In this document: piece after piece, positions 12,308-23,820 of the stretch | Layout of the letters: each line of letters opens with the position of its first letter | How positions within the stretch are numbered: position 1 is the first letter of the stretch | From: an uncultured archaeon | Lineage (GTDB): Archaea > Aenigmatarchaeota > Aenigmatarchaeia > GW2011-AR5 > JAHLMP01 | NCBI GenBank assembly: GCA_964623045.1 | Contig: CAZUUD010000002.1 | Coordinates: forward strand, 1 to 32,704 | DNA: 32,704 nucleotides | Direction of reading: 5' to 3' | Translations under genes and position numbers: made by a program | The notes under the pieces: generated by a model | Told to the model about the DNA's origin: nothing | Databases searched by the model: none | The model's input: the letters and a program-made list of their open reading frames with translations, nothing else

Positions 12308-14236
12308 CTAGCTCACGCGCTTGATGACACGTCTTATCTCTTCTAGGCTTTCGGGATTGAGCAATGTAGAAGTATCTCCTAGCTCCTCGTTATGGAGAAC
12401 TCTCCTTATCAATCTACGCATTATCTTCCCACTTCTAGTATGGGGAAGTGAATTAACGAAGTATATTGCCGCCGGTTTTGCAATTTTGCTTATCTTCTTC
12501 TCCACTAGCTTTATCAATTCGCTTGACGTGGCTTTCGCGCCATGCTTCAAAACGACGAAAGCTACTGGAACTTCTCCTTTAATCTCGTGTCTCATACCAA
12601 CTACGCAACATTCAGCAACTGCTGGATGGGAAGCTATGGCGTTTTCTAGCTCTGCGGTAGATAAGCGATGACCAGCTACCTTCATTACATCGTCGCTTCT
12701 CCCTAGTATCTTTATCAAATTTCCGCTAAGTCTCACAGCCCTATCATTCGTGAGGTAAGCGTTAGGAAATCTAGACCAGTAAGTTTTCACGTATCCAGCC
12801 TCATCTCTCCATAACCCTCTTAGCATGCCAGGAGCGAAGGGTGAAAGAGCAACTAGTTCCCCATCCTCACCTGGCTTCGCGTGTTTTCCATCGGCTCTAA
12901 GCACTCCCCACCTCGTTCCAGGGAATGGTAAGCCGGCAACCGTTGGAACGAAGGGACCCACGCCAGGCAACGTGTTTATTAAGGTTCCTCCTGTTTCCGT
13001 TTGCCACCAAGTATCGATGATCGGGCATCGAGATTTGCCAACTAGCCTGAAATACCATTTCCATGTTTTCTCGTCTATTGGCTCGCCAACACTCGCTAGG
13101 ATTCGCAGAGTTTCGAGCTCGTACTTTTTCACGTGCTCTTCTCCATAGCGCATGAGCATTCTGATCAACGTTGGTGCTGTGTAAAAAATCGTAACGTTGT
13201 ACTTTTCTATTATCTGCCAAATTCGCTCACAATTAGGATAATCAGGAGCCCCTTCATAGATAACAAAACTCGCCCCATTGGCTAGAGGGCCGTAACAAGA
13301 ATAGGTGTGACCTGTTATCCATCCTATATCTGCAGTGCTAAAGAAGACATCAAAGTCATGCAAATCGAAGACTAATTTAGCGGTGGCATAGGCTTGAACT
13401 AAATAGCCACCAGTAGAATGCATGGCTATTTCTGGCTTACCTGCTGAGCCACTCTCGTGTAGGATAAAAAGCAAATCCTCGCTTTGCATCCTAGCTGGCT
13501 CACAGTACTTGCCTTTTACCTCTTTGCTTAGCTCGTTGAAAGCTATCTCATTTCTCTTGAGTTCCTCTTGGATTTTTCCTTTCCTTGGAACAACGAGAAC
13601 CTTTTTCACTTTCGTTCCCTTTATTCCCTCTCTTGCGTTTGAAAGCAAATCAATTACCTTCCCCCTTCGATAGTAGTGATCGCAAGTTATCAACAATTTA
13701 GCGTCAGCATCTAAAATTCTGGTTCGCAAGGCCTCGCTTGAAAAAGCGCTAAATACAACACAGTGAATAGCTCCGATGCGAGCACAAGCTAGCATGGCAA
13801 CTATGACTTCCGGTATCATCGGCATGTAGATCACTACCCTATCACCTCTCCGTATGCCCAGCAACTTCAGAACTTGGGCAAACTCGTTAACTTCACGGAA
13901 GAGTTCAGCGTAAGTTAACTTTCTCTCCCTTTCCTCTAGATTTTCGGGCTCCCAGTAAATAGCTACCTTGTTAGGTTGTGTAGTGAGATAGCGGTCTATG
14001 CAGTTAAAGCAAGCGTTTAACTCACCGCCTATGAACCACTTGAAGTAGGGAAGCTTCTCCTGATAGATCTTTCTCCATTTTTTGAACCAAGCTAGTTCTT
14101 CTGCAAATCTGCACCAAAAGGCGAAGGGATCTCTAGCTGCATCTTTATATATTCGCTCCGAAGCTACCCAAGCTATTTCCTTCAGCTCCTTTGACGGAAA
14201 GAATTTCTTTCCCTTCTTTACAACGTACTCTTCCAT
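12308..14236 (-). CDS. acs: Acetyl-CoA synthetase (AMP-forming)
   Basis: Full-length similarity to ACS, with motifs including HESGSAGKPE, YGPL, WWQTETGG, the adenylation-domain linker LGRSDDVMKVAGHRLSTAELE and a terminal SGKIMRR. The ORF-track start at 14281 is TTG; the ATG at 14236 (MEEYVVKKG) is preferred. Confidence 0.9.
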   Translation of the reverse strand: MEEYVVKKGKKFFPSKELKEIAWVASERIYKDAARDPFAFWCRFAEELAWFKKWRKIYQEKLPYFKWFIGGELNACFNCIDRYLTTQPNKVAIYWEPENLEERERKLTYAELFREVNEFAQVLKLLGIRRGDRVVIYMPMIPEVIVAMLACARIGAIHCVVFSAFSSEALRTRILDADAKLLITCDHYYRRGKVIDLLSNAREGIKGTKVKKVLVVPRKGKIQEELKRNEIAFNELSKEVKGKYCEPARMQSEDLLFILHESGSAGKPEIAMHSTGGYLVQAYATAKLVFDLHDFDVFFSTADIGWITGHTYSCYGPLANGASFVIYEGAPDYPNCERIWQIIEKYNVTIFYTAPTLIRMLMRYGEEHVKKYELETLRILASVGEPIDEKTWKWYFRLVGKSRCPIIDTWWQTETGGTLINTLPGVGPFVPTVAGLPFPGTRWGVLRADGKHAKPGEDGELVALSPFAPGMLRGLWRDEAGYVKTYWSRFPNAYLTNDRAVRLSGNLIKILGRSDDVMKVAGHRLSTAELENAIASHPAVAECCVVGMRHEIKGEVPVAFVVLKHGAKATSSELIKLVEKKISKIAKPAAIYFVNSLPHTRSGKIMRRLIRRVLHNEELGDTSTLLNPESLEEIRRVIKRVS

Positions 14237-14302
14237 TAAGAAAACTAGTTTGGGGTTAACTAAATAGCTTTCTCTTATCAACCGTTAAGTTAACAGAATC
14301 TC

Positions 14303-18643: not shown

Positions 18644-19165
18644 GTGATCCGAATGGGTCTCTATAAGTATCTTCAGCGCCTATGGAAGCGCCCTGCAGAA
18701 AACGTGGAAAGGTACAAGAACCTTTTGAGAGAGTGGAGAAGAGGTCCTGCAATAGTTAGGATAGAGAGGCCTACTCGTATAGACAGGGCCAGAAGACTAG
18801 GTTACCGAGCCAAACAAGGTTTTGTTGTGGTTAGGGTTCGTATAAGGAAAGGTGGAAGAAAGCGACCGAAATACGGAAGAGGTGGAAGAAAACCTAGTAA
18901 GGCTGGTATCTCGAAATTCACTCCCAGAAAGAGTTTACAGTTAATAGCCGAGGAAAGGGCAGCAAGGAAATTTCCAAACCTCGAAGTGCTCAACTCTTAT
19001 TGGGTCGGAGATGATGGAAATTACAAGTACTTTGAGGTTATAATGGTAGACCCGAATCATCCCGTCATCAAGAACGATCCCAAGATCAACTGGATTGTTA
19101 GGCAAAGGGGGAGAGTGTTTAGAGGTTTAACGAGTTCTGGTAAGCGTATGCGAGGTCTACGCTAG
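18644..19165 (+). CDS. rpl15e: 50S ribosomal protein L15e (eL15)
   Basis: [13 protein letters not shown]...[36 protein letters not shown]...[11 protein letters not shown]...DPNHP. The GTG at 18644 has a GAGGT SD at 7-nt spacing. The ATG at 18653 (MGLYKY) is the alternative start. Confidence 0.93.
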
Positions 19166-19960
19166 TAATCTTCTGAGGAGTTCCTTGACGAGCTTTATCT
19201 CTCTGGAAGGTGCTCCTACCTTCTTTAGCAGTTCGGGTGTGGCCATTTGGATAGTAACTACGTTTCTTTTGTAAAGTTTATTCATCGTCTTTCTTGAGAT
19301 AGGAAGGATCGTTATGGGATAAGCCCTCTGCTCCCTTATTAACATCTCCAGGCTCCTCTCTTCTGGATACCGCCATCCTAGCAACTTTATTCCCTTAGCT
19401 AGTGCGTATTTGATGGCATGGAGTGAGAATTTGGTGTTCGTCACTATCCATGCCTCATCAAAGTTATATTTGTTCTTCCCTTCTTTGTATCCGTCCCTTA
19501 TATCTTCCAGCGTTGCCCAAACCTGTAGGGGTATATCAAGTCCGCAAAATCTGTGTGGATTCACGTGATGTTTACACTCTATGAAAAGGAGCTTATCTCG
19601 CTTTGCTACCACATCTACTTCATGTTCTATGCAACTCCCTTCTACGATAATGCTATGCTCACATCTATAACCCAAATTCTCGAAAAGACGCATCACGTAG
19701 ATCTCGAAACTCTTAGGAGGAAGTGAGGCTATGGCTTCCCTCAATCTATAAACGAGTCCACTAGTTCGCTCTATCTTGTCCAGTTCATTGAGAACTAATC
19801 TGTATATCTCCTTCGTTCTTATTCCATCATAGGCTTTTGCCTTGACTCTCTTGGCTATGGTCCTTGCAACCTCCTTACTAACACCAGAACGTATGCACGT
19901 TCGAATTATCTTCGCTTCATCAAACTCCTCTTTCCTTCCATCAGCTTTAATTACGAACAT
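19157..19960 (-). CDS. ATP-cone domain fused to a PD-(D/E)xK (Mrr-type) restriction-endonuclease-like domain
   Basis: 267 aa. N-terminus [24 protein letters not shown]...[12 protein letters not shown] fits the ATP-cone pattern. The central part [14 protein letters not shown]...[20 protein letters not shown]...[16 protein letters not shown] fits the Mrr_cat core with D...E-x-K. The ATG lies 10 nt inside the apgM 3' end. Confidence 0.8.
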
Positions 19961-21123
19961 TTACTTCGCCTCTCCATTTTCATGGCTTCTCGAACAGGAT
20001 TTCTGACTAAGATGCCTGTATGCCTACATGCTCTTTCACAGAAACGTGGAACACCTTTATCAATGGAAACTCTCTTGTTGTAGATTAGAATGGGTGTTGG
20101 TCCGAATTCGTGTTCGCCCGTTCTCGAATTAGTCACGTGATCTATCGCTACGATCAATGTGTGATTTAGATCCTTAAGCCTCGAAAAAACCTCTCGGTCC
20201 ACCCTCTCAAGGAACTTCACCTTTAGGTTAAAATTCTTATCATGGGAAGCTTCATCTGCTCCGTTTATGTGCAGCAATACGAAGTCTTTCTGTTTAGCAG
20301 CAGCTAATACTGCTCTCACTTTATTCTTCAGGTTCGTGTTTACATGACCATTTGCTCCCTTAACAGAAATGTACTCCAGTCCAAGATATCTCGCTATTCC
20401 CTTTATTATGGCAACACCGCTAATCGCTACCCCAACCATTCCATACTTTTCTCTGAAGCTCTTCACCCGCCTAGCTCTAGATGCTCCTCTCAGTAGGATG
20501 TAATTGGCCTTCGTTCTTCTCTTCGAATTAATAGGATGCCTCTCAAGAAGTTGATGCGCTATATCAGAAAAAACATTCAATATCAAGGCTGTATAGTTAG
20601 CTCTGGGACTGAGGGCCTTTATTAGAGCTGGTTTCTCCTTTCCCACGTCTGAGTCGCTTATCTTATCGCTCAATTTACTTCCTCTTAGAATTACAACGCA
20701 TCTATGACCAACGGTATGAATGACGCGTATCTTGATCGAATCTATCTTCATGGTAAGTGTCTTCGCGAGTTCATCTAGTCCTTTCTCTTCTCTTCCAGCC
20801 CTTCTGTCTACTATACGAAGGTCTTCGTCTACTGTTGCGAAGTTCCCCCTTAGGTAGATCTCGTCTTTTCTTGGAATTATACCAGCGCCAAGTGCTTCCA
20901 AGTACCCCCGTCCAGGACAGTCCTTATATCCATAGCCTAATAGGCCAAGCGTAGCTATGTCACTCATCGACTTGGGATTATATCCTTGTGGCGCCTTAGC
21001 TCCTTCCCACATTCCACAGCAACCATTCTCAGCTATTTGATCTAGATTGGGTAGCTCAGCTCTTTCTAGAGCACTCCTTCCTCTATCTGCAGCACCATCC
21101 AAAATCACAAAGATTATCGACAT
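19951..21123 (-). CDS. apgM: 2,3-bisphosphoglycerate-independent phosphoglycerate mutase, archaeal type
   Basis: 390 aa with ILDGAADR at the N-terminus, HINGADEASHD and an alkaline-phosphatase-superfamily layout typical of ApgM. The ATG sits 3 nt after the deoA TGA, which is embedded in an AGGTGA SD. Confidence 0.88.
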   Translation of the reverse strand: MSIIFVILDGAADRGRSALERAELPNLDQIAENGCCGMWEGAKAPQGYNPKSMSDIATLGLLGYGYKDCPGRGYLEALGAGIIPRKDEIYLRGNFATVDEDLRIVDRRAGREEKGLDELAKTLTMKIDSIKIRVIHTVGHRCVVILRGSKLSDKISDSDVGKEKPALIKALSPRANYTALILNVFSDIAHQLLERHPINSKRRTKANYILLRGASRARRVKSFREKYGMVGVAISGVAIIKGIARYLGLEYISVKGANGHVNTNLKNKVRAVLAAAKQKDFVLLHINGADEASHDKNFNLKVKFLERVDREVFSRLKDLNHTLIVAIDHVTNSRTGEHEFGPTPILIYNKRVSIDKGVPRFCERACRHTGILVRNPVREAMKMERRSKCS

Positions 21124-21126
21124 CTT

Positions 21127-22689
21127 TCACCTTTCTAGAATGAATTTCCTTTCGTGAGGCTCAAGTCCAACTTCGGTTATCAGCATGTATCTCCTCAGGT
21201 CATCTACTATTCCTATCGGTTTTGTTTCCTCTGCATGTTTGAGTGCTTGACGCAATCTTACTGAAGAGTTTGAATAAATCGTCAATAACTTTTCTCCCCG
21301 TCTTACCTTATCCGTTATCTTCTTGTGAAGTACTACTCCAGCCCCCTTATCTCGAGGTGCACCAGCTATCTTTGCTATTTCTGCTATTTCTCTGTTCTTT
21401 ATCCACATCACCATCCCTTTCTTCTCTGCATAAATACTTACCCGCTTTTCACCCACTGGTATATCTTCCAGTTTTATGTTTGGATCTCCACCTTGGGCAG
21501 CAATTATCTCTTTGAATTTCTTCAGAGCACGTCCTTTCCTTAACGCTCTAAGGGCTACTTCTCTATTGCCCTTTCTAATTAATTCTAAAAGTTTGCCCGC
21601 AAGCGAGGTTGCCTTATCTATCAAATCGATGGGACGGTGAGTTTGTAGGGCAAATAATGCCTCTCTCGCCTCTAGCGCCGGTCCAACGGCATTACCTACA
21701 GGTTGTTCGCCATAGGTTAGTGCCGCTTTGGCCATTATTTTCATACGTTTAGCAACTTCAATGAGCTCATGAGCAAGCTCATAGGCAGCCCCAAACGTAG
21801 GTAATTTCGATCCCCGTCCAGTTGGAAGATCAAGGATTAAATGTGTAGCACCAACTGCTTTCTTCTTGCTTATGATGGATGGGACGTAGAGTGGGTCGAG
21901 TTCTAGTGGATACTCTATCTTGATGAATGCGTCATCGACTGGAGCTAGGTTAAGGGCACCTCCCCATACTATGCATCCGTTGGTCCGTCTAACTACTCTC
22001 TCTACTTCCTCTATCGTAAGATCAACAGGGGCCAAAACTTCCATCCTATCTGCTGTACCTGCTGGAGATGTTATGGCACGAGAACTTGTCTTAGGTATCG
22101 TAAACCCAAGTGATGCAATTATAGGTACTAACACTAGCGTTGTCTTATCTCCCGGAACGCCACCTAGTGAGTGTTTATCCAGTATAATTTTCTTTTTGAG
22201 ATTAAGCGTCTTACCCGTTCTTACGAACGCTTTAGTAAAGGCAACTGCTTCTTCTATCGTAAGCCCTCTTATGGCAAGGGCAGCTATGAATGCTGCCACC
22301 TCCAGATCATTGAGTTTATTCTCCAAAACGTCGCGGGTTATTTGTTCTATTTCTCCTTTCGTAAGTCTATAGCCGAATATCTTTCGCTTAATAAATCTCT
22401 TCGAGATGAGTTCGCCCCTTGCTCTTATATCGACCTTAGCTCCGTTTACTAGATTGAGATTTTTTGCTATTTCGTGAAAGAAGAGAACCTCTCCTTCCTT
22501 AACGAAAGTGCTGCTTACGTTAACTATAGCAACTGCTGTTCTCTTCCTGTAATTTATTATTACTCTATCTAAGGGCCTCACCCCTAGATCCTCAGCATCT
22601 TTACGATTGAGCACGACTATGTACTTCCCTCCAGCATCTAGGTCCAGAATACGGGCAGTGAATTTCACAAAATAGAATTCCAATTCCAT
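21127..22689 (-). CDS. deoA: AMP phosphorylase (thymidine phosphorylase family, archaeal DeoA)
   Basis: Collinear with Thermococcus AMPpase from memory: an N-terminal extra domain (ARILDLDAGGKYIVVLNRKDAEDLGV), HSLGGVPGDKTT, KTSSRAITSPAGTADRMEV, WGGALNLAPVDD. The true start is the ATG at 22689 (MELEFYF). The 58 upstream codons in the ORF track are low-complexity read-through of a pyrimidine tract. Confidence 0.9.
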   Translation of the reverse strand: MELEFYFVKFTARILDLDAGGKYIVVLNRKDAEDLGVRPLDRVIINYRKRTAVAIVNVSSTFVKEGEVLFFHEIAKNLNLVNGAKVDIRARGELISKRFIKRKIFGYRLTKGEIEQITRDVLENKLNDLEVAAFIAALAIRGLTIEEAVAFTKAFVRTGKTLNLKKKIILDKHSLGGVPGDKTTLVLVPIIASLGFTIPKTSSRAITSPAGTADRMEVLAPVDLTIEEVERVVRRTNGCIVWGGALNLAPVDDAFIKIEYPLELDPLYVPSIISKKKAVGATHLILDLPTGRGSKLPTFGAAYELAHELIEVAKRMKIMAKAALTYGEQPVGNAVGPALEAREALFALQTHRPIDLIDKATSLAGKLLELIRKGNREVALRALRKGRALKKFKEIIAAQGGDPNIKLEDIPVGEKRVSIYAEKKGMVMWIKNREIAEIAKIAGAPRDKGAGVVLHKKITDKVRRGEKLLTIYSNSSVRLRQALKHAEETKPIGIVDDLRRYMLITEVGLEPHERKFILER

Positions 22690-22740
22690 TATTAAAAGGG
22701 TTGGTAACCTCGTGGTGAAGACGGTTGAATTGAACAAAGG

Positions 22741-22748
22741 TTTAAATA
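22741..22748. promoter_or_regulatory. Palindromic TATA-box candidate (TTTAAATA), possibly bidirectional
   Basis: Purine-rich BRE-like sequence on both sides. It lies about 55 nt upstream of the deoA ATG on the minus strand, and about 45 nt upstream of the plus-strand micro-ORF ATG at 22789. Confidence 0.4.
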
Positions 22749-22788
22749 CTTTTCTTCTTCTAGCTACTTCAGCTCCGAGGTGAGCTAG

Positions 22789-22860
22789 ATGGCAGGCTTC
22801 GAGGAAGAGTGGGAAGAGGAGGAACCTGAAGAGGAATGGTGGGAAGAGGAAGAAGAGTGA
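22789..22860 (+). CDS. Candidate 23-aa hyper-acidic micro-ORF (MAGFEEEWEEEEPEEEWWEEEEE)
   Basis: ATG preceded by a GAGGTGA SD at 5-nt spacing, with a TATA-like box about 45 nt upstream. It encodes an internally repeated EEW/EEEE peptide. It could equally be a by-product of a GA-rich regulatory tract. Confidence 0.25.
   Translation: MAGFEEEWEEEEPEEEWWEEEEE
22801..22850. repeat. Two 20-nt purine-rich direct repeats (18/20 identical) at 30-nt period
   Basis: gaggaagagtgggaagagga (22801-22820) and gaggaatggtgggaagagga (22831-22850). The whole 22799-22858 stretch is almost pure purine on the plus strand. Confidence 0.8.
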
Positions 22861-22863
22861 CAA

Positions 22864-23820
22864 CTAGCTCTTGAACTTTGATTTTAGAATTTTGTGAAAT
22901 TCTTCCAAGAACTTCATATTTATCTCAAATTTCTTCTTGAATACGTTTCTTAATTCTATCGGTGGTACGAGTCCTCCATCGCTAGCTATACCATCTATGT
23001 AGTCCGGAGGGGTGACATCGAATGCCGGATTTCTCACTTTCACCCCCTTTATTGGGGTAGGGAGTATCTCTCTTGGGTTTCTCTCCTCAATACTCTCTAA
23101 GTGGCCTGCCTCCGTGAGAGGGTCAAACTTATAGCTTCCGCTTACCACTACAAGTGGAACTCTATGCTCTTTAGCTATTGCCGCTATTGTTGAAGTCCCT
23201 ATCTTATTCACCACAGCACCATTGGAACATATCACGTCTGCTCCTACCATTACGAGATCGACCTCCTTCATGAATCTCCTTACCGCAGAATCTACGATGA
23301 GAGTTGTATCTACACCTGCTGATGCCAATTCCCTAGCTGTTATCCTACCTTGATACTTTGGTCTAGTTTCGGTACAAATTACCTCTATTTCTTTTCCTTT
23401 TCCATGAGCTTTCAGAATTGCTCTTACAACAGTAGAACTATGACAATGGGTTAATATGGTACATTCCCTTGGAATACGATTAGAAGCTACTTCTACTGTC
23501 TTCTGTTGGATATCTTCTATCAGTTTCTTGACTTCATTAACGCTAGTGCGCAGCTCCCTCTTGAGAGAGCTTACGCTTAGTTTTTTGACCTTCTCCAATC
23601 TCGTCAATACTAAGGCCAAAGCATTCCTTGTTGCTGGCTCTGTAGGTCGTGCTACTGCTAGTTGAGTTGCTAATTTGAGTATGCGTTCGTGAAACTTTGA
23701 GGGATCTTTCAATCTCAGCTTCTTTCCCTCCTTAAGAAGAGTTTCAAGGGCAAAGATGGCAATATTGCTTGCTCCTTGAATCTTAAGATCGCGAATTTGC
23801 CTAACTGGGAAGACCCCCAT
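22864..23820 (-). CDS. e2b2: Ribose-1,5-bisphosphate isomerase (eIF-2B alpha/beta/delta family)
   Basis: Strong collinearity with Thermococcus R15P isomerase from memory: ILTHCHSS, CTETRPKYQGRITARELASAG, VGADVICSNGAVVNKIGT, AKEHRVP, RNPAFDVTPPDYID. GAGGA SD 6 nt upstream of the ATG. Confidence 0.88.
   Translation of the reverse strand: MGVFPVRQIRDLKIQGASNIAIFALETLLKEGKKLRLKDPSKFHERILKLATQLAVARPTEPATRNALALVLTRLEKVKKLSVSSLKRELRTSVNEVKKLIEDIQQKTVEVASNRIPRECTILTHCHSSTVVRAILKAHGKGKEIEVICTETRPKYQGRITARELASAGVDTTLIVDSAVRRFMKEVDLVMVGADVICSNGAVVNKIGTSTIAAIAKEHRVPLVVVSGSYKFDPLTEAGHLESIEERNPREILPTPIKGVKVRNPAFDVTPPDYIDGIASDGGLVPPIELRNVFKKKFEINMKFLEEFHKILKSKFKS

Follow-up and report, generated by a model that had tools for sequence, protein, structure and literature searches.

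A predicted ATP-cone nuclease encoded beside DeoA-family phosphorylases in archaea and bacteria, a candidate for the step that feeds nucleic acid into nucleotide breakdown

The AMP/pentose-bisphosphate pathway (DeoA, E2b2, and type III RuBisCO) was described in Thermococcus kodakarensis, and both the archaeal pathway and the RuBisCO of DPANN archaea and the Candidate Phyla Radiation (CPR) are widely proposed to run on nucleotides derived from nucleic acids. Which enzyme supplies these nucleotides? We know of no dedicated one, nor of a nuclease or a phosphoglycerate mutase (PGM) as an operon member of the pathway as described. The question is raised by a locus in the window analyzed here, a 32,704-nt stretch of an uncultured archaeon of the Aenigmatarchaeota (contig CAZUUD010000002.1), where the gene for a 267-amino-acid protein, designated X, follows those for AMP phosphorylase (deoA) and PGM (apgM). 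X is a predicted nuclease with an N-terminal ATP-cone, a domain for which, to our knowledge, experiments have established a single role, that of master switch of ribonucleotide reductases (RNRs) and of the repressor NrdR. We estimate at roughly 50% the probability that X, gated by adenylates, acts as an endonuclease at the entry of this pathway and opens nucleic acid so that it can be converted to nucleoside monophosphates (NMPs), and we regard its family as a good candidate for the point at which nucleic acid enters nucleotide breakdown. Growth of DPANN archaea on nucleic acids via this pathway has already been proposed, with the nucleases left unidentified (PMC7414124).

A preliminary description of the window, made from the nucleotide sequence, had proposed that X combines an ATP-cone with an Mrr-type nuclease core, and both domains were recovered above the Pfam cut-offs: residues 1–60 matched the ATP-cone family PF03477 (36.9 bits, cut-off 25.8, profile positions 1–67 of 88), and residues 78–194 matched Mrr_cat, PF04471 (34.1 bits, cut-off 21). 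A third domain at the C-terminus had been overlooked; it scored 23.5 bits against AF1548-like_C (PF22357, cut-off 23.9) in X itself and exceeded the cut-off in homologues of X, for example with 25.1 bits in locus L088. Residues 89–256 aligned to AF1548 of Archaeoglobus fulgidus (PDB 1Y88) with a phmmer E-value of 1e−29, and the family profile of the ATP-cone aligned with residues 49–127 of Escherichia coli NrdR (E = 1.3e−3). When the ATP-cone alone was searched against PDB sequences, most matches were designed helical-repeat proteins, which were set aside as compositional false positives, and only those to NrdR and Aquifex R1 were meaningful.

An AlphaFold model of X built from 38 homologues was highly confident, with a predicted local distance difference test score of 96.9 and a predicted template modeling score of 0.91. 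In the model, the ATP-cone consists of two strands (residues 2–4 and 10–12) and four helices (15–24, 29–42, 49–63, and 65–78), and the nuclease of helix 82–95, strands 99–107, 112–120, and 124–130, helix 142–159, and strand 169–174; the core as a whole (residues 82–195) has the alpha-beta-beta-beta-alpha-beta restriction-endonuclease-like fold and is followed by four C-terminal helices. Foldseek matched the model to 1Y88 with an E-value of 1.2e−15 and a template modeling (TM) score of 0.79 on the target, and to the ATP-cones of NrdR and of the E. coli, human, and Aquifex RNR R1 proteins with probability 1.0 (E-values of 1e−3 to 1e−2). The ligand-gated nucleases Can2 and Card1 were matched via the nuclease domain (7BDV, E = 6.6e−4; 6WXW; TM scores of 0.26–0.35), and weaker matches were obtained to HindIII, MspJI, and EndoMS. 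By sequence and predicted fold, X is thus assigned to the AF1548-like nuclease family as a member with an added ATP-cone. AF1548 shares the nuclease core, the C-terminal helical domain, and the predicted D/E/K residues with X, but is 199 amino acids long, has only about 23 residues ahead of its nuclease, and lacks the ATP-cone. Because the function of AF1548, a structural-genomics entry, was never determined, it informs on the fold only.

The predicted catalytic residues of X were strictly conserved. E86, D116, E128, K130, D153, and N175 were invariant in all 38 of the archaeal and CPR homologues used for the residue counts, and the equivalents of E86, D116, E128, and K130 were also invariant in 27 of 27 bacterial members. 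Conservation of the D/E-x-K residues in orthologues had been chosen beforehand, along with the domain matches, as a point on which the proposal would stand or fall, and it was found in 38 of 38. This catalytic set corresponds to the predicted catalytic residues D38, E51, and K53 of AF1548 (PMC1821046). In the ATP-cone, V3, K5, E11, and K17 of X align with V51, K53, E59, and K65 of NrdR, mutants of which are impaired in nucleotide binding, oligomerization, and DNA binding (PMC12176259). Across the family, position 3 was V or I in 37 of 38 members, position 5 was K in 34, position 11 was E in 26, and position 17 was K or R in all. These patterns suggest that X is probably an active nuclease with an ATP/dATP-sensing domain.

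How might such a sensor work? The ATP-cone at the activity site of class I–III RNRs, which belongs to the same Pfam family as that of X, is an on/off allosteric switch set by ATP versus dATP; it controls ribonucleotide reduction, whereas the enzyme fused to it in X is a predicted hydrolase, and the gene context of X is nucleotide catabolism, not deoxynucleoside triphosphate (dNTP) synthesis. NrdR provides a precedent in which nucleotide-driven oligomer switching controls nucleic acid binding, and the ATP-cone of X shares the NrdR hairpin motif and retains each of the four mutationally validated nucleotide-contact residues. In NrdR, however, the ATP-cone is C-terminal, whereas in X it is N-terminal and the effector is a catalytic nuclease fold. 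By analogy, the ATP-cone of X may act through nucleotide-dependent oligomerization.

The same analogy raises the alternative that X is a nucleotide-responsive DNA-binding regulator that corresponds to NrdR in archaea and Bacteroidota. Oligomerization would then be controlled by the ATP-cone, the nuclease-fold and C-terminal helical domains would bind operator DNA, and the targets would be the adjacent metabolic operon or nucleotide-metabolism genes. In NrdR itself, an ATP-cone is joined to a DNA-binding module, and DNA binding is switched by the nucleotides with which the protein is loaded (PMC9110341, PMC12176259). Consistent with a regulator, X heads the bacterial cassette described below, dCMP deaminase recurs beside X in archaeal clades that are not linked to salvage genes, and the P0022 homologue (42% identical) lies 125 nt upstream of the gene for an 897-amino-acid ATP-cone RNR. 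That locus is the sole RNR adjacency seen for the family, and X otherwise differs from NrdR in being unlinked to RNR genes. X also lacks a helix-turn-helix and the zinc ribbon of NrdR, the match to TIGR00244 (17.9 bits against 124.65) covering the ATP-cone part alone. The invariance of E86, D116, E128, and K130 in both the archaeal and the bacterial branches would be unusual for a fold recruited for binding alone, and archaeal X is the last, translationally coupled gene of its unit and is not separately controlled. We therefore regard a purely regulatory role as improbable.

The preliminary description had listed four genes on one strand, e2b2, deoA, apgM, and that of X, and all four were confirmed on the minus strand (Table 1). 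deoA passed the AMP phosphorylase equivalog TIGR03327 (572.4 bits, cut-off 535), apgM passed TIGR00306 (326.6 bits, cut-off 320), and e2b2 matched PF01008 at 1.3e−77. The best NCBIfam match of e2b2 was the ribose-1,5-bisphosphate isomerase family TIGR00511 (290.5 bits, under the equivalog cut-off of 314), and, helped by the deoA/rbcL context in relatives, it is the probable isomerase. Two junctions that had been taken as signs of co-translation were read from the sequence as proposed: the TGA stop of deoA lies inside the Shine–Dalgarno sequence of apgM, 3 nt before the ATG (AGGTGA-aag-ATG), and the last 10 nt of apgM overlap the start of X (ATGTTCGTAA). deoA was listed as an open reading frame (ORF) with a TTG start, 21127–22863; because AMP phosphorylase homology begins only at residue 68 of this ORF, the true start is most likely the ATG at 22689, and e2b2 and deoA are therefore separated by a gap. 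The gap contains a TATTTAAA box that is also kept in the relative L001 and is the probable promoter of deoA-apgM-X, so that e2b2, which adjoins deoA in most related loci, is probably transcribed separately in the window. Thus, of the proposed four-gene string, the operon-like coupling of deoA, apgM, and X held, these three alone forming a tightly coupled unit in the window, whereas e2b2 was set apart by the promoter-like gap. At the other end, the 3′ ends of X and rpl15e overlap by 9 nt (19157–19165), so that a terminator could not fit between them, and the same arrangement was seen in L001 and L008. L001, which is 82% identical, is fully syntenic with the window. The other genes of the window are housekeeping genes, namely those for RNA polymerase, ribosomal proteins, IF-2, primase, and GINS.

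To place this unit among its relatives, a genome collection was scanned with a 19-sequence alignment of X, yielding 80 species-level loci, a sample biased towards Aenigmarchaeota. The gene immediately upstream of X encoded ApgM at 22 loci, a cofactor-independent PGM of the iPGM type at four, a His_Phos_1 protein at four, and DeoA at six. The iPGM assignment is sound (TIGR01307, 688 bits, cut-off 331); the His_Phos_1 proteins scored 95 and 91 bits against the cofactor-dependent PGM (dPGM) subfamily cut-off of 81.7 and, because only this subfamily cut-off was passed, are called only probable dPGMs. The distance from X to the upstream gene had a median of 4 nt and was 5 nt or less in 25 of 36 cases, with eight overlaps. 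In a neighbor-joining tree of X, the window falls in an Aenigmarchaeota-type clade of about 45 tips; 38 of these were linked to salvage genes, with X coming straight after deoA or a PGM gene. The expectation that the linkage would recur in related genomes was thus borne out in this clade and not in the other archaeal and CPR clades. Within the linked clade, the iPGM, dPGM-like, and no-PGM states sit in separate subclades, indicating that the upstream slot was remodeled several times while X stayed put.

Type III RuBisCO (about 430 amino acids; TIGR03326, 572 bits against 497) was encoded in the same string at seven related loci. Six of these are of the Aenigmarchaeota type, with the order e2b2-x-rbcL-deoA-X or rbcL-deoA-apgM-X; the seventh, a Bathyarchaeia locus, is differently arranged, with X divergent from e2b2-rbcL-deoA. 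The likeness to the known pathway consists of deoA and e2b2 in the window and type III RuBisCO in the string of its relatives. With these seven loci and the independent bacterial cassette described below, the link to nucleotide salvage is stronger than had originally been proposed.

Such linkage could still lack functional meaning, if an X of unrelated housekeeping function had been fixed beside the salvage genes once and then carried along. The archaeal linkage is indeed limited to a single clade in the X tree, many X genes elsewhere are solitary, and a convergent TtuA-like gene downstream of X is kept in 14–20 loci, suggesting that rearrangement is generally slow here. Passive carriage sits poorly with the way in which X keeps its tight position while the upstream slot changes among three enzyme families or is lost, and with the Bathyarchaeia arrangement and the bacterial cassette, which again pair X with a DeoA-family phosphorylase. 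We consider it unlikely.

Several archaeal loci have further features. A 225-amino-acid protein without a family match is encoded between deoA and apgM in L005 (4147–4824), and a 176-amino-acid protein with faint HAD/nucleotidase-like matches between e2b2 and rbcL in L018 (805–1335). In some Aenigmarchaeota, the AMP phosphorylase gene is interrupted by an intein (L025, 1990–4818; also L024, 1145–3829), seen as Intein_splicing and LAGLIDADG_3 domains in a 942-amino-acid ORF. In Nanohaloarchaea-type and related loci (L063, L065, L072 at 2021–2527, L073, L077, and L086), a conserved protein of about 168 amino acids without a Pfam or NCBIfam match is encoded directly downstream of X, with a 4-nt overlap at the X stop, and may be a clade-specific partner of X.

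In the archaeal and CPR clades without salvage linkage, the recurrent neighbors were NFACT, dCMP deaminase, ScpB, an Lhr-type helicase, a Na/H exchanger, and a P-type ATPase. The helicase, ScpB, and dCMP deaminase are among the observations that would fit a DNA-maintenance endonuclease acting in repair, replication restart, or chromosome processing and tuned by dATP/ATP, in which case the adjacency to salvage genes would reflect regulation shared with nucleotide supply, not substrate provision. The order of a nuclease fold and a helical C-terminal domain, common to X and AF1548, is in line with this role; the C-terminal domain of AF1548 is placed by SCOP with the Rad51 N-terminal-like helix-hairpin-helix domains, and the XPF/Hef nucleases have a comparable nuclease-plus-helix-hairpin-helix layout. 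EndoMS is among the weak fold matches, and primase and GINS are encoded 5 kb away in the window. Meanwhile, the strongest and most repeated partners of X are catabolic (deoA, PGM, RuBisCO, PPK2, and a beta-CASP RNase that has an RNA-specificity domain), the top 50 fold matches included no XPF, Hef, or Mus81 structure, and no conserved PCNA-interaction or repair operon context was found. On balance, a DNA-maintenance role appears unlikely.

The catabolic partners recur in bacteria. A tblastn search of plasmids revealed full-length homologues of X in Pontibacter actiniarum and Criblamydia sequanensis (31–32% identity, 97% coverage), which are annotated as “ATP cone domain-containing protein”; the Pontibacter homologue scored 28.3 bits against PF03477. 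In both, X is the first gene of a cassette that continues with a beta-CASP metallo-beta-lactamase (MBL) ribonuclease carrying an RMMBL RNA-specificity domain, an archaeal-type thymidine/NMP phosphorylase, and a protein of the phosphoribosyl pyrophosphate (PRPP) synthetase family. The phosphorylase scored 668–679 bits against PRK04350 (cut-off 434) and 480–506 bits against AMP_phos, under 535. The Criblamydia cassette is set among genes for phosphoketolase, glycogen phosphorylase, and acetate kinase. In the 57 metagenomic loci that extended 3 kb or more downstream of X, a beta-CASP RNase was present in 36, usually immediately adjacent to X, followed in frequency by a P-type ATPase (23/57), the NMP phosphorylase (21/57), a Prs-like protein (18/57), a conserved 229-amino-acid protein (18/57), and PPK2 (8/57). 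What archaea and bacteria have in common is X with a DeoA-family phosphorylase; beta-CASP RNase, Prs, and PPK2 were not partners in the archaeal X loci. Two CPR loci, L052 and L064, had been taken by gene size for cassettes of the bacterial type and were rejected, as their genes proved to be those of glycoside hydrolases and an EamA transporter.

The protein of about 229 amino acids is encoded between Prs and PPK2 (L092, 10659–11348; L093, 6924–7601) and has a sub-threshold DUF3108-like match. The P-type (E1-E2) cation ATPase is a second recurrent neighbor of X in archaea and bacteria, its gene often overlapping the stop of X (L060, 6780–9194; L079, 6789–9200; L085, 6879–9806; L091, 1658–4282; L089, 137–2845; and L092/L093). 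A low-oxygen locus of Burkholderia, lxa, which includes an RNase, a P-type ATPase, and acetate kinase, was considered and set aside as a loose parallel, with neither X nor a thymidine phosphorylase listed.

The occurrence of some X members on plasmids is one of several observations that favor a defense nuclease of the Mrr/type IV kind, firing when infection upsets ATP or dNTP pools. X shares with Mrr-family type IV restriction endonucleases an Mrr_cat domain above the cut-off, PADLOC gave a weak match to the Mrr-like nuclease domain of ZorD (E = 1.4e−6), and Can2 and Card1, which join a sensor to a PD-(D/E)xK nuclease, are defense effectors as well as fold analogues of X. Their design logic, an adenine-nucleotide sensor fused to a restriction-endonuclease-fold nuclease, is that of X, but their sensor is a CARF domain, their signal the CRISPR second messenger cyclic tetra-adenylate, and their context defense; X has no Pfam match to CARF or SAVED and no CRISPR linkage. 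X may thus work like Can2/Card1 and like the RNR and NrdR switches while belonging to neither system. X differs from the type IV enzymes in lacking an Mrr_N-type reader domain for modified DNA and a defense island, and in being chromosomally conserved and coupled to metabolic genes; the PADLOC match concerns only a generic nuclease domain. The plasmid copies lie within metabolic cassettes, the window and related loci are housekeeping in character with synteny kept across about 40 species, no methyltransferase, Cas, toxin, or other defense family is among the recurrent neighbors, and no phage homologues of X were found. A defense function, which the preliminary description had offered as its alternative, is disfavored by this context, by the vertical conservation, and by the lack of phage matches, and we give it little credence.

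The architecture of X is common, already annotated in databases, and not specific to DPANN: it comprises 618 clusters at 50% identity (E ≤ 1e−30), and the bacterial branch at least 7522 clusters at 90% identity, with Pontibacter (WP_237151220.1), Flavobacterium, Sporocytophaga, and Cyclobacterium among its cultured carriers. Accordingly, the fusion of ATP-cone and nuclease is in itself no discovery, and the family's abundance in free-living Bacteroidota makes the earlier idea of a module suited to a host-dependent, small-genome archaeon too narrow. A literature search, whose coverage did not include the original ATP-cone paper, returned no description of the ATP-cone/Mrr nuclease fusion, in agreement with the earlier statement that no member is characterized. 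Neither a nuclease nor a PGM is named as a partner in the RuBisCO neighborhood papers. In no paper did we find the coupling of X to the pentose-bisphosphate pathway and to PGMs of three types, or its bacterial coupling to the beta-CASP RNase/NMP phosphorylase/PPK2 cassette.

On the interpretation of X as an adenylate-gated endonuclease at the pathway entry, the protein would be cytoplasmic, with its activity set by adenine nucleotides bound to the ATP-cone at the N-terminus. The ATP-cone would read ATP, ADP, or dATP and, as in RNR and NrdR, shift how the protein oligomerizes or how its domains pack; once this permitted cleavage, the PD-(D/E)xK core would cut nucleic acid gripped by the C-terminal helical domain and generate 5′-phosphate ends. 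Cleavage by PD-(D/E)xK enzymes leaves such ends, and for beta-CASP enzymes of the RNase J type they are the preferred entry for 5′-to-3′ exonucleolysis to NMPs. Exonucleases, in bacteria the adjacent beta-CASP RNase, would turn the fragments into NMPs, and DeoA would phosphorolyze these to ribose-1,5-bisphosphate. In archaea, E2b2 and type III RuBisCO would then yield 3-phosphoglycerate, which the co-translated PGM would pass to lower glycolysis. The bacterial partner points to RNA as the favored substrate, and energy limitation is the presumed physiological trigger.

Several points weigh against this interpretation. Since PD-(D/E)xK endonucleases yield fragments, not mononucleotides, further enzymes are required, and no exonuclease was linked to X in the archaeal loci. 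No RuBisCO was detected with Pfam or NCBIfam within the 32.7-kb window, in which the locus differs from the known pathway; about half of the archaeal and CPR loci lie in clades without salvage linkage; and the linkage as a whole may reduce to about three ancestral events kept by descent or transfer. E11 of the ATP-cone is kept in only 26 of 38 members, the recurrent P-type ATPase partner is left unexplained by a salvage model, and the literature search returned no biochemical or functional characterization of any member of the X family. On the supporting side, three proteins annotated like members of the bacterial cassette, namely an MBL-fold hydrolase, a ribose-phosphate pyrophosphokinase, and a thymidine phosphorylase family protein, are induced by microoxia in Bradyrhizobium diazoefficiens (bll3115–3117) and form part of its core microoxic proteome (PMC6515984); the likeness is one of annotation.

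A broader version of the endonuclease interpretation, which we hold only tentatively and consider rather doubtful, makes the X family the committed step, gated by energy charge, of a starvation pathway that would lead from nucleic acid to ATP in both domains of life. As adenylate status falls, the ATP-cone would free the nuclease, cellular or imported RNA would be opened, and DeoA-type enzymes would phosphorolyze the NMPs; archaea would burn the products via RuBisCO, PGM, and lower glycolysis, and bacteria would recycle the NMP products through Prs and PPK2. If this were true, the long-missing NMP source of the type III RuBisCO pathway would be identified, and X would provide the first case of an ATP-cone shown to govern an enzyme that plays no part in making deoxyribonucleotides. 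Should the nuclease prove to be controlled by its ATP-cone, this switch would in any event be extended to nucleic acid degradation, and the X family offers a concrete candidate, open to testing, for the missing supplier of nucleotides to the type III RuBisCO pathway. Because cultured Bacteroidota carry X beside the cassette, standard genetic and biochemical work can put this to the test, with no need to grow a DPANN archaeon.

Table 1. Features of the X locus in the 32,704-nt window and predicted domains of X
Feature	Position	Strand	Description	Family
rpl15e	18644–19165	+	convergent with X, marks the end of the unit	PF00827 (5.8e−74)
X	19157–19960	−	267 amino acids, three predicted domains: ATP-cone, Mrr/AF1548-type PD-(D/E)xK nuclease, AF1548-like C-terminal helical domain	
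X, AF1548-like C-terminal helical domain	19157–19360	−	about residues 201–267 plus stop codon	PF22357
X, PD-(D/E)xK nuclease core	19361–19726	−	about residues 79–200; E86, D116, E128, K130	PF04471
X, ATP-cone domain	19727–19960	−	about residues 1–78, beta-hairpin then helices	PF03477
apgM	19951–21123	−	archaeal-type cofactor-independent phosphoglycerate mutase	TIGR00306
deoA	21127–22689	−	AMP (NMP) phosphorylase, probable ATG start	TIGR03327
e2b2-deoA gap	22690–22863		174 nt; TATTTAAA box at 22741–22748, about 55 nt upstream of the deoA ATG	
e2b2	22864–23820	−	eIF-2B family, probable ribose-1,5-bisphosphate isomerase	PF01008

The gap between e2b2 and deoA also contains, on the plus strand, an extremely acidic, Trp-containing ORF of 23 codons (MAGFEEEWEEEEPEEEWWEEEEE, 22789–22860), with a GAGGTGA Shine–Dalgarno sequence 5 nt upstream and a TTTAAATA box about 40 nt upstream. 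Its counterpart in the 82% identical relative (MVGFEEEWEEEEEWWEEEEEEEEEE) keeps the frame despite indels and was also predicted by the gene caller; the ORF was not found in loci more distant than this relative. Elsewhere in the window, an acetyl-CoA-synthetase-like AMP-binding enzyme of 657 amino acids (12308–14281) is apparently without an intein, and its copy in L001 (15688–18747, 1019 amino acids) contains a LAGLIDADG intein.

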